A stretch of 64,000 nucleotides of DNA, taken from the sequence record PQ349265.1, one strand, 5' to 3'. Under the pieces are notes generated by a model. The model had not been told where the DNA came from. It saw only the letters and a list, made by a program, of their open reading frames with translations, and did no database searches. The stretch's first letter is position 1. The number at the start of each line of letters is the position of its first letter. This DNA comes from Escherichia phage CJY920. Both the position numbers and the translations under genes were made by a program. Shown here one piece after another: positions 3,162-57,933 of the stretch.

Positions 3162-4155
3162 GTCTTATTTTGGTAGTCATCTTTATGGAACTTCTACTCC
3201 AGAATCTGATGTAGATTTTAAAGAAATCTTTGTTCCTCCTGCTCGTGATATTCTTATCGGAAATGTTAAAGAGCATATGAGTAAAAACACTAATAACACA
3301 TCATCTAAAAACACTAAAGATGATATTGACCATGAACTATACAGTCTTAAGTATTTCTTTAAATTAGCAGCAGATGGTGAAACTGTAGCATTGGATATGC
3401 TCCACACTCCACCTGAACTGGTAGTTAAATCTGATTTGCCTGATGTATGGAAGTTTATTCAAGACAATCGTTCTCGTTTTTATACGACTAACATGAAATC
3501 CTATTTAGGATATGTTCGCAAGCAAGCTTCTAAATACGGTGTCAAGGGTTCTCGTTTGGCCGCATTACGTGATGTATTGAAAGTAGTTAATCAAATCCCT
3601 GACCAGTGGGTTGATTACCAAGAAGACGGTTCTATTAAGCAACGTCGAACTAAAGTTGAAGATATTAAGCATCGTCTTCCAGAAAACGAATTCTGTGAAT
3701 GGGTGTTTCATAATCATGAGAAAACAGGCCCGCAAACGTTCTATACTGTGTTGGGTCGTAAATATCAGACAACGCTTTCTCTTATTGAGCTTAAGCAGTC
3801 TTTGAATAAACTTGATGCCGAATACGGTGAACGTGCTCGTAAAGCTGAAGCTAACGAAGGCATTGATTGGAAAGCTCTGAGTCATGCTTGTCGTGGTGGA
3901 CTCCAACTATTGGAAATTTACAAAACTGGCGACTTGGTTTATCCACTCCAAGATGCTCCGTTTATTCTCGACGTGAAGCTGAGTAAACATCCATTTAAAA
4001 CTGTTCAAGAGTTTTTGGAAGATGTGGTCGATCAAGTAGAAGCAGCATCCATTGAAGCTTCTAAGAACGGTATGCAGCAAAAAGTAGACATGGGTTTCTG
4101 GGATGACTTCCTTGAAAGGGTTTATCTTGAAAACCACCGAAGTTATTATAAATGA
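3145..4155 (+). CDS. Pol-beta superfamily nucleotidyltransferase-like protein
   Basis: GSHLYGTSTPESDVDF resembles the GS-x(9-13)-DxD nucleotidyltransferase signature; start chosen at ATG 3145. Confidence 0.55.
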   Translation: MKTVVKSYFGSHLYGTSTPESDVDFKEIFVPPARDILIGNVKEHMSKNTNNTSSKNTKDDIDHELYSLKYFFKLAADGETVALDMLHTPPELVVKSDLPDVWKFIQDNRSRFYTTNMKSYLGYVRKQASKYGVKGSRLAALRDVLKVVNQIPDQWVDYQEDGSIKQRRTKVEDIKHRLPENEFCEWVFHNHEKTGPQTFYTVLGRKYQTTLSLIELKQSLNKLDAEYGERARKAEANEGIDWKALSHACRGGLQLLEIYKTGDLVYPLQDAPFILDVKLSKHPFKTVQEFLEDVVDQVEAASIEASKNGMQQKVDMGFWDDFLERVYLENHRSYYK

Positions 4156-51713: not shown

Positions 51714-53264
51714 ATGATTAAGAATGAAATTAAAATTCTGAGCGATATTGAACATATCAAAAAGCGTAGCGGCATGTATATTGGCTCTTCTGCTAATGAA
51801 ATGCATGAGCGCTTTCTGTTTGGTAAATGGGAAAGTGTTCAGTATGTACCTGGTCTTGTTAAGCTTATTGATGAAATTATCGATAACTCAGTAGATGAAG
51901 GTATTCGTACTAAGTTTAAATTCGCAAATAAAATTAGTGTTACTATTAAAAACAATCAAGTAACAGTTGAAGATAACGGTCGCGGTATTCCACAGGCGAT
52001 GGTTAAAACACCTACTGGTGAAGAAATTCCTGGTCCTGTTGCTGCATGGACTATTCCAAAAGCAGGTGGTAACTTTGGTGATGATAAAGAACGCGTCACT
52101 GGCGGTATGAATGGTGTTGGTTCTAGTTTGACAAACATTTTTTCTGTGATGTTTGTCGGTGAAACTGGTGATGGTCAAAATAATATTGTAGTTCGTTGTT
52201 CAAATGGCATGGAAAATAAATCATGGGAAACTATTCCAGGAAAATGGAAAGGAACTCGTGTTACTTTCATTCCTGATTTTATGTCATTTGAAACTAATGA
52301 GCTGTCCCAAGTTTATCTTGACATTACACTAGATCGTCTCCAGACACTTGCAGTAGTTTATCCTGATATTCAATTTACCTTTAATGGTAAAAAGGTTCAG
52401 GGCAATTTTAAGAAATATGCACGCCAATATGATGAGCATGCTATCGTTCAAGAACAAGAAAATTGCTCTATTGCGGTTGGTCGTTCACCGGATGGTTTTC
52501 GTCAATTAACTTATGTGAATAACATTCACACTAAGAATGGTGGCCATCACATTGACTGTGTTATGGATGATATTTGTGAAGACCTTATTCCACAAATCAA
52601 ACGTAAGTTCAAAATTGATGTGACTAAAGCACGCGTTAAAGAATGTTTGACTATCGTTATGTTTGTCCGTGATATGAAAAACATGCGATTTGATTCTCAA
52701 ACTAAAGAGCGTTTGACTTCTCCATTTGGTGAAATCCGTAGTCATATTCAACTTGATGCTAAAAAGATTTCACGTGCTATTCTAAATAATGAAGCAATTC
52801 TAATGCCGATTATTGAAGCTGCTTTGGCTCGTAAATTGGCGGCAGAAAAAGCAGCAGAAACTAAAGCAGCTAAAAAGGCTTCTAAAGCTAAGGTTCATAA
52901 ACATATTAAAGCGAATCTTTGTGGTAAAGATGCTGATACTACTCTTTTCTTGACTGAGGGTGATTCGGCTATCGGATATCTTATTGATGTTCGTGATAAA
53001 GAACTTCACGGTGGTTATCCATTACGTGGTAAAGTTCTCAACAGTTGGGGTATGTCATATGCTGACATACTTAAAAACAAAGAACTGTTTGATATTTGCG
53101 CAATCACTGGATTAGTTCTCGGTGAAAAGGCGTTTGAAGAAAAAGAAGATGGCGAGTGGTTTACTTTCGAACTAAATGGCGATACAATTATCGTAAATGA
53201 AAATGATGAAGTACAGATTAATGGTAAATGGATAACAGTAGGTGAATTACGAAAAAATCTATAA
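51714..53264 (+). CDS. 39: topoisomerase II large subunit gp39 (GyrB-like ATPase)
   Basis: 516 aa; GHKL ATPase motifs (IDNSVDE, GRGIP); GAGG SD. Confidence 0.9.
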   Translation: MIKNEIKILSDIEHIKKRSGMYIGSSANEMHERFLFGKWESVQYVPGLVKLIDEIIDNSVDEGIRTKFKFANKISVTIKNNQVTVEDNGRGIPQAMVKTPTGEEIPGPVAAWTIPKAGGNFGDDKERVTGGMNGVGSSLTNIFSVMFVGETGDGQNNIVVRCSNGMENKSWETIPGKWKGTRVTFIPDFMSFETNELSQVYLDITLDRLQTLAVVYPDIQFTFNGKKVQGNFKKYARQYDEHAIVQEQENCSIAVGRSPDGFRQLTYVNNIHTKNGGHHIDCVMDDICEDLIPQIKRKFKIDVTKARVKECLTIVMFVRDMKNMRFDSQTKERLTSPFGEIRSHIQLDAKKISRAILNNEAILMPIIEAALARKLAAEKAAETKAAKKASKAKVHKHIKANLCGKDADTTLFLTEGDSAIGYLIDVRDKELHGGYPLRGKVLNSWGMSYADILKNKELFDICAITGLVLGEKAFEEKEDGEWFTFELNGDTIIVNENDEVQINGKWITVGELRKNL

Positions 53265-54060
53265 TGACTTAATAGTGCGGGGTAAAACCCGCGTTTCTAA
53301 ATTTAAGGGTGAAATTCATCATATCCTTCCAAGATCAATGGGAGGTTCTGATGATAAAGAAAATTTGGTGAAACTGACTTTTCGTGAACATTTTTTAGCA
53401 CATTTTCTACTATATAAAATTCATCGTAATCGTGAAATGGCATATGCGATGAATAGAATGTTAAACACTGAAAAATATTTACGTTCTAGTAAATTATATG
53501 AAATTGCTAGAATTTACCATCAAAGAGCAGTATCTGAATGGTCAAAAAACTTTATGAAAGATAAAGTTTTAATGAGAAGTATTAAATCGGGTAAATGCGC
53601 CTTATTAATTAAAGGATCATTTAACCCAAAGGAATGGTGCGGTGTTAATAAAGGTGTTAAGCTTCCTGGAATTAAAGGCATGACATGCTTTAAAAATGAA
53701 AAAGGCGAAGTTTTTCGTCTTCATGTTAATGATCCACGCATTAAAGCTGAAAAATTAGTTGGTATTGGAAATACTGTTGCTGCTACTGCAAAAGCAGCTG
53801 AACTTGAAAAAGCGAAACCATGGTATAATAAATCAGCGACAAATCCAGAGGCTGTAAAATTAATACCAAATTTATATGAATGGTACGTCACGAAATATGA
53901 CCCCGATCATTATAAACGAACGGGAGTTGCTAAATGGAAATCAGTTAATAATATAACTGTGAATTCAAAATTATTCGGCCGAGCATTTAATGAATTTAAA
54001 CGCGGTTGGATTCCTGATGAAAAGTTCTATGAGGTGTATAATGAAATTTGTAAAAATTGA
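53242..54060 (+). CDS. mobA: Mob-type HNH homing endonuclease (MobA-like, between 39 and 60)
   Basis: MNYEKIYNDLI..., HHILPRSMGG...NLVKLTFREHFLAH; GTG start inside last 23 nt of gene 39. Confidence 0.75.
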   Translation: MNYEKIYNDLIVRGKTRVSKFKGEIHHILPRSMGGSDDKENLVKLTFREHFLAHFLLYKIHRNREMAYAMNRMLNTEKYLRSSKLYEIARIYHQRAVSEWSKNFMKDKVLMRSIKSGKCALLIKGSFNPKEWCGVNKGVKLPGIKGMTCFKNEKGEVFRLHVNDPRIKAEKLVGIGNTVAATAKAAELEKAKPWYNKSATNPEAVKLIPNLYEWYVTKYDPDHYKRTGVAKWKSVNNITVNSKLFGRAFNEFKRGWIPDEKFYEVYNEICKN

Positions 54061-54573
54061 TTCTTCTAGCGTTGATATGAAAAAATATAAATTGCAGAAC
54101 AATGTTCGTCGTTCTATTAAATCCTCTTCAATGAACTATGCGAATGTCGCTATTATGACAGACGCAGATCACGATGGATAGCCTTCGGGCTATCTATAGA
54201 AATACCTCATAATTAAGAGATTATTGGATTAGGTTCTATTTATCCTTCTCTGCTTGGATTTTTTAGTAATTGGCCAGAACTGTTTGAGCAAGGACGAATT
54301 CGCTTTGTCAAAACTCCTGTAATCATCGCTCAGGTTGGTAAAAAACAAGAATGGTTTTATACAGTCGCTGAATATGAGAGTGCTAAAGATGCTCTACCTA
54401 AACATAGTATTCGATACATCAAGGGATTGGGCTCACTTCAGCGGGATGAATATAAAGAAATGATTCAAAACCCTGTGTACGACGTAGTTAAACTTCCTGA
54501 AAATTGGAAAGAACTATTTGAAATGCTCATGGGTAACGACCCTGAACTCCGTAAAGATTGGATGCTAGGATAA
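54041..54573 (+). CDS. 60: topoisomerase II small subunit gp60, join(54041..54178,54229..54573) via 50-nt translational bypass
   Basis: MKFVKIDSS...AIMTDADHDG to take-off GGA then UAG; landing GGA 54226-54228; resumes LGSIYPSLLGFFSNWPELFEQGRIRFVK...; 46+114=160 aa. Confidence 0.85.
54179..54228 (+). other. gene 60 coding gap (ribosomal hop) with take-off stem-loop
   Basis: UAG stop inside UUCG hairpin (gga-tag-cc-ttcg-gg-cta-tc); matching GGA codons 50 nt apart. Confidence 0.8.
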
Positions 54574-55370
54574 TGAATTATCGTAAAATTTATGATAAAC
54601 TTATCGCTGCGGCTAAAAACCGCAGCACTATTCCTAATTATACTGAAACTCACCATATTTTGCCTAAATCTATGGGCGGGAGTAATGCTAAATCAAATCT
54701 AGTTAAAATGACCCCTAGAGAGCATTTTATCGCCCATTTATTGCTTTATAAAATTCATAAGAACCGTTCTATGCTTATGGCTATTAGAGCTTTTTACATG
54801 GGAGCTAGAAATTCTAGAGATTATGATTGGCTTAAACAAGAATTCTCTAAAGAGCACTCTAGATTTATGAAAGAATGGATTGCTAAAAATGGCAACCCAT
54901 TTAAAGGTAAAAAACATACTAAAGCAACAAGAGAATTAATGTCACATATTGCTTCACAACGTATAGGCGAATTAAATCCATTTTATGGTAAAACTCATAC
55001 GCAAGAAGCAATAGATAAAATAATACAGGCTAACAAGTTATCTTGGGAGAATGGGCGAAAAGCACCTGTAAAAACAAAAGAACACCAGGATAAAATAACT
55101 AAATCAAGAATGGAAACATTTAAAACAAAAGGATTTAAACCATACACTCCTAGGTCAGAAGAAACTAAAGCTAAGACTAGAGAGTTGTATAAATCTAAAT
55201 ATGAAAGAAGGCCTATAAGAATCACAAGTGTAAAAACAGGCGAAACTATTGATTTTAACTATCTTTATGAATTAAGGGAGTATTTAGATATAGGGTCTTC
55301 TAATATATTGAAAGCATTAAATAATCCTAACAGAACCTGCAAAGGTTATAAAATGTGTTGGATGTCCTAA
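54573..55370 (+). CDS. Mob-type HNH homing endonuclease
   Basis: MNYRKIYDKLI..., THHILPKSMGG...NLVKMTPREHFIAH; NUMOD3-like NPFYGKTHT; ATG overlaps gene 60 TAA. Confidence 0.75.
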   Translation: MNYRKIYDKLIAAAKNRSTIPNYTETHHILPKSMGGSNAKSNLVKMTPREHFIAHLLLYKIHKNRSMLMAIRAFYMGARNSRDYDWLKQEFSKEHSRFMKEWIAKNGNPFKGKKHTKATRELMSHIASQRIGELNPFYGKTHTQEAIDKIIQANKLSWENGRKAPVKTKEHQDKITKSRMETFKTKGFKPYTPRSEETKAKTRELYKSKYERRPIRITSVKTGETIDFNYLYELREYLDIGSSNILKALNNPNRTCKGYKMCWMS

Positions 55371-55397
55371 GCTCCTTCGGGAGCTTCATTTTAATTT
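55369..55397 (+). terminator. intrinsic terminator (UUCG hairpin plus T-rich tail)
   Basis: aagctcc-ttcg-ggagctt then tcattttaatttt. Confidence 0.55.
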
Positions 55398-55487: not shown

Positions 55488-55516
55488 TTTACTTTACCAC
55501 AAGGATGTGGTATAAT
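55488..55516 (+). promoter_or_regulatory. early sigma70-type promoter
   Basis: agtttactttaccacaaggatgtggtataat; near-identical to 8132-8161. Confidence 0.55.
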
Positions 55517-55541: not shown

Positions 55542-55745
55542 ATGAAATCATATAAAGTAAATTTAGAACTTTTTGATAAAGCAGTTCATCGAGAATATAG
55601 AATCATTCAACGCTTTTTCGATATGGGAGAAGCCGAAGAATTTAAAAACCGCTTTAAAGATATTAGAGATAAAATTCAATCCGACACCGCAACTAAAGAC
55701 GAACTACTAGAAGTTGCTGAAGTTATTAAGCGTAATATGAATTAA
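55542..55745 (+). CDS. hypothetical protein (67 aa; rIIA.1 position)
   Basis: track ORF upstream of rIIA. Confidence 0.5.
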
Positions 55746-55755
55746 TGAGGAAATT

Positions 55756-57933
55756 ATGATTATCACCACTGAAAAAGAAACAATTCTTGGTAATGGTTCT
55801 AAATCAAAAGCATTTAGCATCACAGCATCTCCTAAAGTATTTAAAATTCTGTCATCTGATTTGTATACAAACAAGATTCGCGCAGTAGTTCGTGAATTGA
55901 TTACCAACATGATTGATGCCCATGCTCTTAATGGAAATCCTGAAAAATTTATCATTCAAGTTCCTGGACGTTTAGATCCACGATTTGTTTGCCGAGATTT
56001 TGGTCCGGGTATGAGCGATTTTGATATTCAAGGTGATGATAATTCTCCTGGGTTGTATAATTCATACTTTAGTTCATCTAAGGCTGAATCTAACGATTTC
56101 ATTGGTGGATTTGGTTTAGGTTCTAAATCTCCGTTTAGTTATACTGATACATTTAGTATTACTTCATATCATAAAGGCGAAATTCGTGGTTATGTAGCTT
56201 ACATGGATGGTGATGGTCCACAGATTAAACCTACATTCGTAAAAGAAATGGGTCCAAATGATAAAACTGGTATTGAAATCGTAGTTCCAGTTGAAGAAAA
56301 AGATTTTAGAAACTTTGCTTATGAAGTTTCTTATATCATGCGACCATTCAAAGATTTGGCTATCATTAATGGTCTTGACCGTGAAATTGATTATTTTCCG
56401 GATTTTGATGACTACTACGGCGTAAATCCAGAAAGATACTGGCCAGATCGTGGTGGATTGTATGCTATCTATGGTGGTATTGTTTATCCTATTGATGGTG
56501 TTATTAGAGACCGTAACTGGTTAAGCATTCGCAATGAAGTGAATTACATTAAGTTTCCAATGGGTTCACTTGATATTGCTCCATCACGTGAGGCTCTTTC
56601 ACTAGATGATCGTACTCGTAAAAATATTATTGAGCGTGTTAAAGAGCTTAGTGAGAAAGCATTTAATGAAGATGTAAAACGATTTAAAGAATCTACATCT
56701 CCTCGTCATACATACCGTGAATTGATGAAGATGGGATATTCTGCTCGAGATTATATGATTAGTAATTCGGTCAAATTCACGACTAAAAATCTGTCATATA
56801 AGAAGATGCAAAGCATGTTTGAACCTGACAGTAAGTTATGCAATGCAGGGGTTGTGTATGAAGTAAATCTTGACCCTCGACTGAAGCGCATTAAGCAAAG
56901 CCATGAAACTTCAGCCGTTGCGTCAAGCTATCGTCTGTTTGGTATTAATACGACAAAAATTAATATTGTTATTGATAATACTAAAAATCGTGTTAATATT
57001 GTCCGTGGATTAGCACGTGCATTAGATGATAGCGAATTTAATAACACCTTAAATATTCATCACAATGAGCGTCTTCTGTTTATTAATCCGGAAGTAGAAT
57101 CACAGATTGATTTACTCCCTGATATTATGGCAATGTTTGAAAGTGATGAAGTTAACATTCATTATTTGTCAGAAATTGAAGCTTTAGTTAAAAGTTATAT
57201 TCCAAAGGCAGTAAAAAGTACAGCTCCTCGTCCTAAAACTGCCACTGCATTTAAGTTTGAAATTAAAGACGGGCGTTGGGAAAAAGAGGAATTGTTTACG
57301 CTCACATCAGAAGCAGATGAAATTACTGGTTATGTAGCATACATGCATCGTTCTGATATTTTCTCTATAGATGGTACTACATCGCTTTGTCATCCATCTA
57401 CGAATATTTTGATTCGTATGGCTAATCTTATTGGCATTAATGAATTTTATGTTATTCGTCCGCTTTTGCAGAAAAAGGTAAAAGAACTTGGTCAGTGCCA
57501 ATGTATTTTTGAAACTTTGCGTGATTTATATGTAGATGCTTTTGATGATGTAGATTATGATAAGTATGTAGGTTATTCAAGTTCAGCTAAACGATATATT
57601 GATAAAATTATCAAGTATCCTGAGTTAGATTTTATGATGAAGTACTTCAGTGTAGATGAAGTTTCTGAAGAATATACACGACTCGCTAATATGGTTAGTT
57701 CATTACAGGGTGTATATTTCAACGGTGGAAAAGATACCATCGGTCATGACATCTGGACAGTAACTAATCTTTTTGATGTATTATCAAATAATGCTTCAAA
57801 AAACAGTGATAAAATGGTTGCTGAGTTTACCAAGAAATTCCGTATTGTTTCCGACTTCATCGGTTATCGCAATTCTTTAAGTGATGATGAAGTTTCCCAA
57901 ATCGCTAAAACTATGAAGGCCCTTGCGGCCTAA
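55756..57933 (+). CDS. rIIA: rIIA protein
   Basis: 725 aa [30 protein letters not shown]...; matches remembered T4 rIIA. Confidence 0.9.

Follow-up and report, generated by a model that had tools for sequence, protein, structure and literature searches.

The gene 60 region of Escherichia phage CJY920 (record PQ349265.1) raises the question of how a reading frame that meets a stop codon after 46 codons, and resumes 50 nt further on in a different frame, can give a single subunit of topoisomerase II. The window analyzed here spans 64,000 nt of this record, and all features described lie on its + strand. There is very little doubt about the answer: the region carries a T4-type mobA/gene 60 cassette with a programmed 50-nt translational bypass. 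The sequence holds nothing contrary to bypass, and the phenomenon is already known from T4 gene 60, from about 41 T4-like records that contain the same cassette, and from a survey of divergent mobA/bypass cassettes (Manning & Atkins 2022, bioRxiv 10.1101/2022.08.31.505936).

ORF1 of gene 60 (54041..54178) comprises codons 1–46, ends with the take-off codon, and its direct translation is MKFVKIDSSSVDMKKYKLQNNVRRSIKSSSMNYANVAIMTDADHDG. The ATG at 54041 is the start annotated in T4 and the one associated with a Shine-Dalgarno sequence, GAGG at 54031..54034, with a 6-nt spacer; the mechanical list of open reading frames instead opens ORF1 at an in-frame upstream ATG (53990). The take-off codon is GGA (Gly46, 54176..54178), directly followed by UAG (54179–54181), exactly as read, to the base, in the first-pass annotation. 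Both codons lie within the 5′ arm of a predicted stem-loop (54174..54197) with 10 bp and a UUCG tetraloop (54184–54187). That annotation had described a GC stem with this loop; the hairpin and its tetraloop are indeed present, but the stem is G+C-rich in its apical part only. The hairpin folds at −14.7 kcal/mol (z = −5.1), and equally good folds occur in 0 of 200 shuffles. Among six diverse cassettes, 60 of the 60 cells are paired, whereas sliding the register lowers pairing to 18%–45%. The one compensatory pair involves the take-off codon's third base and takes the form A-U, U-A, or G-C.

The untranslated coding gap runs from the UAG through the landing codon (54179..54228, 50 nt), and the matching stretch of the T4 record is labeled as a misc_feature, “non-coding translational bypass region.” The landing codon (54226..54228) is the only GGA of the gap and, as previously noted, matches the take-off codon 50 nt upstream; in T4-type cassettes, a single tRNA decodes both members of such a pair. 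At published bypass sites, the landing codon is preceded, at a distance of 5–7 nt and in A+U-rich surroundings, by a Shine-Dalgarno-like triplet, GAG (or GGG, GGA, AGG); here, a GAG (54217..54219) stands 6 nt ahead of the landing GGA, and the surrounding segment 54195–54225 is 81% A+U. The gap is closed in all three frames, by stops at 54179 and 54197 (frame 0) and at 54210 and 54214 (the other two). Because ORF1 and ORF2 are in different frames and every frame of the gap contains a stop, neither readthrough nor a local frameshift is able to join them. The positions of the stop codons thus rule out both UAG readthrough and frameshifting by −1 or +2 at take-off.

ORF2 (54229..54573) was delimited by translation, by a Pfam TOPRIM_C match on the spliced gene 60 protein, and by site-by-site comparison. 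Decoding resumes at UUA 54229 and covers codons 47–160 (114 codons, LGSIYPS...DWMLG), up to the TAA at 54571–54573. The 46 and 114 residues add up to the 160-aa topoisomerase II subunit with T4 gene 60 architecture that had been proposed, and match T4 gp60; across the junction the spliced product reads ...AIMTDADHDG-LGSIYPSLLGFF.... The frame of ORF2 opens at 54217, after the TAA at 54214–54216. Its first ATG, GTG, or TTG is the TTG at 54427, by which point 66 codons of the conserved domain have passed; no canonical start precedes it in this frame, in line with the first-pass remark that the frame has no start of its own. An open stretch of 119 codons has a probability of about 5e-5 by chance at the local composition. 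The unsplit topoisomerase II protein of F1 is contiguous at the same place (...IMTDADHDG|LGSIYPA...), with no residue gained or lost at the junction, and the structures of the unsplit protein (PDB 8ylu) and of T4 gp39–gp60 (PDB 8yo3) are equally contiguous. Just past the landing codon, T4-type sequences have UUA GGU UCU and F1-type sequences CUU GGA AGU, both coding for Leu-Gly-Ser. Such synonymous differences, including the UCU/AGU serine switch, indicate that the sequence is constrained as coding from codon 47 onward.

Alignment to T4 gene 60, which the first-pass annotation had suggested as a check, gives 100% identity over 234 nt (54021–54254: ribosome-binding site, ORF1, gap, and 26 nt at the start of ORF2), so that each published bypass signal in this segment is unchanged. 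The ORF1 product is identical to T4 gp60 at 46 of 46 residues, and equally to PDB 5np6 chain C, the 46-aa nascent chain of the take-off ribosome complex. The nascent-peptide signal said to precede the take-off site is indeed there: it is KKYKLQNNVRRSIKSSS, residues 14–30 (54080..54130), identical to T4. All of the signal residues listed in a conservation survey and in PMC5462505 are retained (Y16, Q19, V22, R24, S25, K27, S28, Y33, M39, T40, and H44), among which Tyr16, Arg24, and Ser28 are reported to touch the exit-tunnel proteins L22 and L4 (PMC5462505). For clade 1 only, the literature describes a 5′ stem-loop that precedes the take-off hairpin and takes part in bypass, and the minimum free energy fold of 54140–54280 predicts one at 54140..54165, in sequence identical to T4.

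Downstream of the landing site, a hairpin that keeps the T4 pairs is predicted at 54247..54294. It may represent the 3′ stem-loop (“forward slippage barrier”) reportedly defined by Samatova et al. 2014, and we infer that the two probably correspond. Its predicted stability is −13.1 kcal/mol, versus −15.9 kcal/mol in T4; it is about 2.8 kcal/mol weaker because of two synonymous changes, 54255 C>U (C-G to U-G) and 54280 U>C. Hence, the efficiency of bypass could differ slightly from the ∼50%–60% of T4, but the 3′ stem-loop is regarded in the literature as poorly conserved and possibly without sequence specificity.

Work on the identical T4 sequence suggests how the hop would proceed. Codons 1–46 would be translated first, and the nascent peptide (residues ∼14–46) would grip the exit tunnel and keep the peptidyl-tRNA-Gly on the ribosome. 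The small UUCG hairpin, forming in the A site, would mask the UAG, while EF-G would drive a nondecoding slide of the ribosome along the mRNA. The GAG that precedes the second GGA by six bases would pair with 16S rRNA and aid re-pairing of the tRNA at that GGA, and decoding would restart at UUA 54229. The 160-aa product would then assemble with gp39 and gp52 into topoisomerase II. That the host ribosomes of this phage hop, and with what efficiency, is inferred from the identity with T4.

One reading that dispenses with a hop is that two polypeptides are made, the 46-aa product ending at the UAG and the C-terminal part being initiated independently downstream. Two separate coding sequences are annotated in this way in the records of BF15, S16, Pm5461, and Thanatos-1, and both BF15 and T4 have an in-frame TTG, a potential start, at the position equivalent to 54280. 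In the window, however, this codon is CTG, which leaves the distant TTG at 54427 as the first canonical start; the 17 codons from the landing site to 54280 are under coding constraint (synonymous relative to F1) and colinear with the unsplit homologs; and mass spectrometry in T4 reported only the product landing at the corresponding GGA. Separate initiation is therefore very improbable. A still more doubtful proposition is that the 50-nt insertion, which interrupts the frame and brings stops in all frames, inactivated the 3′ part of the gene, the downstream frame being open merely by recent descent. Against such a pseudogene stand the 119 open codons of ORF2, hardly expected by chance, and the overwhelmingly synonymous nature of its substitutions. 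Moreover, about 41 independent T4-like genomes carry the cassette without variation, distant cassettes retain matched take-off and landing codons together with a covarying hairpin, and T4 gp60 is present in solved topoisomerase II structures.

If the 50 nt were removed at the RNA level, by an intron or by editing, or were an assembly artifact, the mRNA would in fact be continuous and no recoding would be needed. This alternative can be raised for any interrupted gene, and no observation made here favors it. Self-splicing introns need far more than 50 nt. The same 50 nt are found in dozens of independently sequenced genomes, and in a reconstituted in vitro translation system ∼60% bypass product is obtained from the full-length T4 mRNA with its gap in place. 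A search of the whole 64,000-nt window with Rfam at gathering thresholds returned no intron or other RNA family; because the bypass element is itself not an Rfam family, this result excludes only introns and other known RNAs. A continuous mRNA is thus extremely improbable. In conclusion, the missing start, the synonymous patterns, and the conservation of the cassette are the grounds for rejecting independent initiation, a pseudogene, and removal at the RNA level, and leave programmed bypass as the reading adopted here.

The gap belongs to a larger mobile element. Gene 39 (51714..53264; Pfam HATPase_c and DNA_gyraseB) codes for the N-terminal part of the split topoisomerase II large subunit, and its product is colinear with the unsplit F1 protein as far as ...GLVLGEKA. 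Similarity to F1 ends at 53131/53132, and the last ∼44 codons of gene 39 (53132–53264) are a C-terminal extension encoded by the element. The break points relative to F1 place the whole mobA element, about 1105 nt, at 53132..54237: position 53131 aligns with F1 3771 and position 54237 with F1 3835, the element (53132–54236) standing in place of 63 nt of the unsplit gene (F1 3772–3834). Within it lie the tail of gene 39 and mobA, then the first 46 gene 60 codons with the 50-nt gap and another 9 nt beyond it, and a published description of the element gives the same layout with a length of 1097–1106 nt (bioRxiv 10.1101/2022.08.31.505936). Inserted in the TOPRIM region, it provides gene 60 with an N-terminal extension and gene 39 with a C-terminal tail. 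From ∼53132 to 54254, the sequence is 100% identical to phage BF15. The gene mobA (53242..54060) is intact and codes for a predicted HNH homing endonuclease of 272 aa (PHROG 655, E = 2.5e-57; weak Pfam HNH match). It starts with GTG and overlaps gene 39 by 23 nt and gene 60 by 20 nt; T4 mobA likewise has a GTG start and a 23-bp overlap (PMC2988022). The 50-nt insert, as part of the mobA element, is reported to shield the genome that carries it from nicking by MobA.

A second gene of this kind (54573..55370, 265 aa; Pfam NUMOD3; PHROG 655, E = 1.3e-55) follows gene 60 directly, its ATG sharing bases with the gene 60 stop (TAATG). It lies outside the bypass cassette and is lacking in T4. The two products share 61% identity, restricted to the N-terminal 71 aa, and in both the Pfam HNH scores are just under the curated cut-offs (20.1 versus 21.4 and 16.7 versus 22). 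The Mob-type class is described as having an N-terminal HNH module and a distinct C-terminal DNA-binding region, as free-standing, whether between phage genes or inside them, and as patchily distributed among close relatives. The spread is patchy here (the second gene in ∼27 of ∼680 related records, mobA with the gap in ∼41), and from their sequences both genes are assigned as putative Mob-type free-standing HNH homing endonucleases, the second with NUMOD3 repeats. The copies of the second gene in F1, BYEP01, and fPS-90, located after the unsplit topoisomerase gene, are 99.5%–99.7% identical to that of the window.

The region is a mosaic of near-identical BF15-like and F1/BYEP01-like patches, which meet within gene 60 at 54402..54408, as shown by site comparison and by identities in bins. 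BF15 was used as the reference for the patches because mobA of the T4 reference has many single-base indels relative to the window. Between 54229 and 54402, 33 of the 37 sites that differ between T4 and F1 follow T4; the remaining four (54255, 54336, 54384, and 54280) are point differences from T4, with 54280 matching neither T4 nor F1. Comparison of the gene with T4 counts three synonymous changes from the landing site to 54402. From 54408 to 54439 all 11 listed sites follow F1, and from 54408 on gene 60 is 99.5%–99.7% identical to F1, BYEP01, and fPS-90. The sequence at the crossover junction is GATGCTCTACCTAAACATAGTATTCGATACATCAAG. The first-pass annotation was silent both on this different allele in the 3′ quarter and on the second endonuclease gene. 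Among 50,697 phage genomes, 0 records combine the second endonuclease gene with mobA and the gap; the odds that chance accounts for this absence are about even, and the mosaic is a modest one. Exact-pattern scans of the IMG/VR viral contigs matched neither the crossover junction nor the 53-nt take-off-to-landing sequence, and are uninformative because the latter, which is plain T4 sequence, is missing there too.

In the window, the only Shine-Dalgarno sequence upstream of the second endonuclease AUG is a badly spaced AGGA, 2 nt away, and no late-promoter motif was found upstream of this AUG. Together with the UAAUG overlap, this suggests that the endonuclease is possibly translated mainly by ribosomes finishing gene 60. 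It is a doubtful but conceivable reading that in this recombinant, with two Mob-type cassettes flanking ORF2, the ribosomes that complete the hop (roughly half) would be those translating the second endonuclease. If this speculative coupling were true, bypass would serve to throttle a second selfish element.

Because the standard example of programmed translational bypassing is gene 60 itself, its hop in a T4-like genome adds nothing new on the mechanism, and the only new detail is that two selfish endonuclease genes surround it in an unusual combination. Many automatic annotations imply two polypeptides, and the finding flags a gene that they routinely split into two “hypothetical proteins.” It also provides a natural variant in which the signals of the element are intact, while the predicted downstream hairpin and the C-terminal quarter are altered and a second endonuclease gene abuts. 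This is a ready-made allele for studying the role of downstream context in bypass efficiency, or the co-conversion tracts of neighboring homing endonucleases.

Among known systems, the closest is the T4 gene 60 bypass of the T4-like Tequatrovirus phages (“clade 1,” such as T4, RB55, HY01, and BF15); all of the T4 signals up to 26 nt of ORF2 are base-identical to the window. There too, mobA lies upstream with the same overlaps, and the element agrees with that of the window in size and in where it enters the TOPRIM domain. However, mobA is intact in the window and BF15 but split into mobA and 60.1 in the T4 reference record. The last 55 codons of gene 60 in the window come from an F1-type allele, unlike T4, and the two gp60 proteins show 11 amino-acid differences, all in residues 117–160. 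The unsplit large subunit of F1, BYEP01, and fPS-90 (PDB 8ylu) has the motif IMTDADHDGLGSIYP identical to that of the window and is colinear with gp39 and gp60 once the tail of the former and the first ∼30 residues of the latter are set aside, but it is encoded by a single 605-aa ORF without mobA, gap, or recoding.

Outside phages, the literature describes the “byp” elements in mitochondria of the yeast Magnusiomyces capitatus, non-coding inserts of 27–55 nt that are crossed by programmed bypass, with matched take-off and landing codons, as here, and with a slow-to-decode codon after take-off that has its likeness in the window. They differ in that their sequence is unrelated, there are many inserts per genome, and they spread like GC clusters; unlike the window, they have no known linked endonuclease or nascent-peptide signal. 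Divergent mobA/bypass cassettes (Manning & Atkins 2022) are those of Salmonella phage S16, of the Proteus phages PM2 and Pm5461, and of Shewanella phage Thanatos-1, which belong to other phage genera; these cassettes show only ∼73%–81% nucleotide identity. Their take-off/landing pairs are GGU/GGC, GGG/GGA, and GGU/GGU, whereas the window has GGA/GGA, and the tip of the hairpin is CC-UUCG-GG in S16, PM2, and Pm5461, as in the window, but UUAG in Thanatos. All four nevertheless share with the window the insertion point after D-x-D-x-D-G, the matched Gly codons for take-off and landing, the UAG following take-off, and the Shine-Dalgarno-like purine triplet ahead of the landing codon.

Gene 60, which codes for a topoisomerase II subunit, lies in two segments on the plus strand. 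Translation starts at the ATG at 54041, six bases past a GAGG (54031-54034), and ORF1 runs for 46 codons (MKFVKIDSSSVDMKKYKLQNNVRRSIKSSSMNYANVAIMTDADHDG) up to the take-off codon GGA (54176-54178), with the stop UAG (54179-54181) directly 3' of it. The landing codon, a second GGA, is at 54226-54228, and the gap, counted with the UAG and this GGA, measures exactly 50 nt. ORF2 extends from UUA at 54229 to TAA at 54571-54573 and adds 114 residues (LGSIYPS...DWMLG), giving a total of 160. Direct reading and translation of both segments thus confirm all the gene 60 coordinates of the first-pass annotation, including the end of ORF1 at GGA-UAG and the matching GGA 50 nt downstream. The downstream frame was also said to lack a start of its own. 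It opens no earlier than 54217, past TAA at 54214-54216, and its earliest ATG, GTG or TTG is the TTG at 54427, inside ORF2. At the 34% G+C of the window, 119 codons would stay open by chance with a probability of ~5e-5.

The frames of ORF1 and ORF2 differ, and the 50-nt gap contains stops in all three frames (54179 and 54197; 54210; 54214). Because every frame is closed, readthrough of the UAG and local frameshifting are both ruled out as ways of joining the segments, which is possible only by re-pairing beyond 54216. F1 and BYEP01, T-even phages free of the insertion, instead encode the subunit as one 605-aa protein with the uninterrupted sequence ...NIAIMTDADHDG LGSIYPALL.... The same contiguous junction sequence is found in an unsplit 611-aa homolog (PDB 8ylu) and in T4 gp39-gp60 (8yo3 and others), and the 46-residue nascent chain of the stalled take-off ribosome (PDB 5np6, chain C) matches ORF1 at 46/46 residues. 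The spliced protein matches Pfam TOPRIM_C, and the acidic D-x-D-x-D-G motif of its TOPRIM fold immediately precedes the junction. Just past the landing codon, the T4-type UUA GGU UCU and the F1-type CUU GGA AGU differ at 5 of 8 bases and both encode Leu-Gly-Ser; over 54229-54402 the two types show 37 base differences and 7 amino-acid differences. Selection has therefore acted on the ORF2 frame from its first codon, 66 codons before any possible start.

The first-pass annotation had proposed the architecture of T4 gene 60 and an alignment with it. A three-way alignment shows 100% identity with T4 and with BF15 (a T4-like phage) over 54021-54254, which takes in ORF1 with its ribosome-binding site, the 50-nt gap, and ORF2 up to its 26th nucleotide, and the 46 + 114 residues give the expected 160-aa product. 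In the T4 reference record, the homologous 50 nt of gene 60 carry the label "non-coding translational bypass region". By megablast against 50,697 phage records, T4 and ~40 T4-like phages match gene 60 over 98% of the query. The proposed nascent-peptide signal (KKYKLQNNVRRSIKSSS) was located at residues 14-30, and the proposed UUCG stem at the take-off site is recovered as a predicted 10-bp hairpin at 54174-54197 (−14.7 kcal/mol, z = −5.1; 0/200 shuffles fold as well), whose 5' arm contains the take-off codon and the UAG. When the window was aligned with five divergent cassettes, from S16 (Salmonella), UoN_LG358_1 (Escherichia), PM2 and Pm5461 (Proteus), and Thanatos-1 (Shewanella), the stem showed standard pairs in 60/60 cells, the pair holding the third base of the take-off codon being A-U, U-A, or G-C according to clade. 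Sliding the 3' arm by 1-3 columns in this six-cassette alignment lowers pairing to 18-45%. Judging from such comparison in a small sample, the take-off hairpin is a selected structure, consistent with a published survey (bioRxiv 10.1101/2022.08.31.505936).

The bypass mechanism of CJY920 is inferred from the literature on T4, because the T4 sequence studied there is identical. In that system, Tyr16, Arg24, and Ser28 of the nascent peptide touch the exit-tunnel proteins L22 and L4, and the peptide retains peptidyl-tRNA-Gly and inactivates the peptidyl-transferase center (PMC5462505). A short stem-loop in the A site keeps the release factor out, take-off is set off by EF-G via pseudotranslocation, GTP is hydrolyzed throughout sliding, and ~50-60% of the ribosomes complete the hop (PMC6551183). 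A GAG six bases 5' of the landing codon pairs with the anti-SD, and the 5' and 3' stem-loops favor directionality and correct landing (bioRxiv 10.1101/2022.08.31.505936; PMC6551183). The gap lies within the ~1.1-kb mobA element and reportedly protects carrier DNA from MobA nicking (bioRxiv 10.1101/2022.08.31.505936). By analogy, in CJY920 the nascent peptide would grip the exit tunnel and hold peptidyl-tRNA-Gly, the stem-loop would fill the A site and shut out the release factor, and EF-G would start take-off; the ribosome would then slide with GTP hydrolysis, GAG-anti-SD pairing preceding landing at the second GGA. The gap would also shield the carrier DNA from MobA nicking.

Gene 60 as a whole is ~92% identical to T4, and its differences are unevenly distributed. 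From the landing site to 54402 there are only three, all synonymous (54255 CUC>CUU, 54280 UUG>CUG, 54336 GUC>GUU); from 54408 every informative site has the F1/BYEP01 allele, so that the protein departs from T4 gp60 at 11 amino acids, every one of them within residues 117-160. A predicted hairpin at 54247-54294 keeps the T4 pairs and is 2.8 kcal/mol weaker (−13.1 vs −15.9 in T4), owing to 54255 C>U (C-G to U-G) and 54280 U>C. This hairpin, a candidate for the 3' stem-loop, would be a natural variant of that element, which is reported to be host-derived and poorly conserved (bioRxiv 10.1101/2022.08.31.505936). The change at 54280 also removes an in-frame TTG at which the BF15 annotation starts a separate ORF2 CDS.

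A sharp crossover lies inside gene 60 at 54402-54408, T4/BF15-type on the left and F1/BYEP01-type on the right. The window is ~95-96% identical overall to the nearest phage records, and binned identities, with a background of 92-98%, rise in two adjoining patches: one 100% identical to BF15 (~53132 to 54254, the mobA element), the other 99.7-100% identical to F1/BYEP01 (54408 to ~55460). The latter comprises, with its flanks, a second Mob-type endonuclease gene (HNH + NUMOD3, 265 aa, plus strand, 54573-55370) directly 3' of gene 60, its ATG overlapping the gene 60 stop (TAATG). The pattern is consistent with that left by homing and flank co-conversion by two neighboring homing endonucleases, the order of events not being readable from it. 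Only the N-terminal nuclease module is shared with MobA (61% over 71 aa). T4 has no gene at this position, whereas F1, BYEP01, fPS-90 (likewise unsplit and without mobA), and ~24 other records have one 99.5-99.7% identical behind the unsplit topoisomerase gene. The two cassettes occur together in none of the 50,697 phage records, because none matches gene 60 at 95% or above. This is unremarkable, since with ~41 carriers of mobA and the gap and ~27 of the second endonuclease among ~680 related records, only ~1.6 joint carriers are expected by chance. A speculative and rather improbable reading is that the second endonuclease has its translation coupled to ribosomes that have finished the hop. 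At the very end of its gene is a terminator-like 7-bp UUCG hairpin with a T-run (55369-55386, plus strand; AAGCTCCTTCGGGAGCTT CATTTTAATT), and a sigma-70-like promoter match (TG-extended TATAAT, 55488-55516) precedes rIIA.1.

The two halves of gene 60 are mostly separate CDS in the records of BF15, S16, PM2, Thanatos-1, UoN_LG358_1, and Pm5461, some named "hypothetical protein" and some with invented starts; mention of the recoding is limited to a few T4-like records. UoN_LG358_1 (OK570374.1, 220-420; Gelderlandvirus) has an S16-type cassette with a GGU-UAG take-off, a UUCG hairpin, and a GGC landing site; as it is an Escherichia phage, the recorded host range of the S16-type clade reaches beyond Salmonella. 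The 53-nt T4 take-off-to-landing sequence occurs in ~41 GenBank phage genomes and has zero exact matches in IMG/VR viral contigs, so this collection seems to be without T4-like cassette carriers. A search of both strands of the whole 64-kb window at Rfam gathering scores found no family and no group I intron.

Gene order around gene 60 is that of T4: gene 39 (51714-53264), mobA (53242-54060), gene 60, and, farther along, rIIA.1 (55542-55745) and rIIA (55756-57933). mobA begins with GTG and overlaps gene 39 by 23 nt, as described for T4 (PMC2988022). It is an intact 272-aa ORF in the window and in BF15, whereas in the T4 reference record (NC_000866), where the sequence differs from that at 53242-54060 by many single-base indels, it is broken into two pieces, "mobA" and "60.1". 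All sequence features that define the T4 gene 60 bypass are present, the 3' stem-loop as a predicted candidate. Hence, the two-segment observation is confirmed and the T4-type bypass interpretation is supported. The phenomenon itself is not novel, the bypass being known from the original T4 work onward and repeatedly restudied; the sole new item is the mosaic context, i.e., the second Mob-type endonuclease gene and the crossover inside gene 60. The mobA element occupies 53132-54236/7, where the unsplit gene has 63 nt instead, in agreement with published elements (1097-1106 nt, replacing 55-75 nt; bioRxiv 10.1101/2022.08.31.505936), and the cassette is a member of the "clade 1" mobA elements of Manning & Atkins (bioRxiv 10.1101/2022.08.31.505936).
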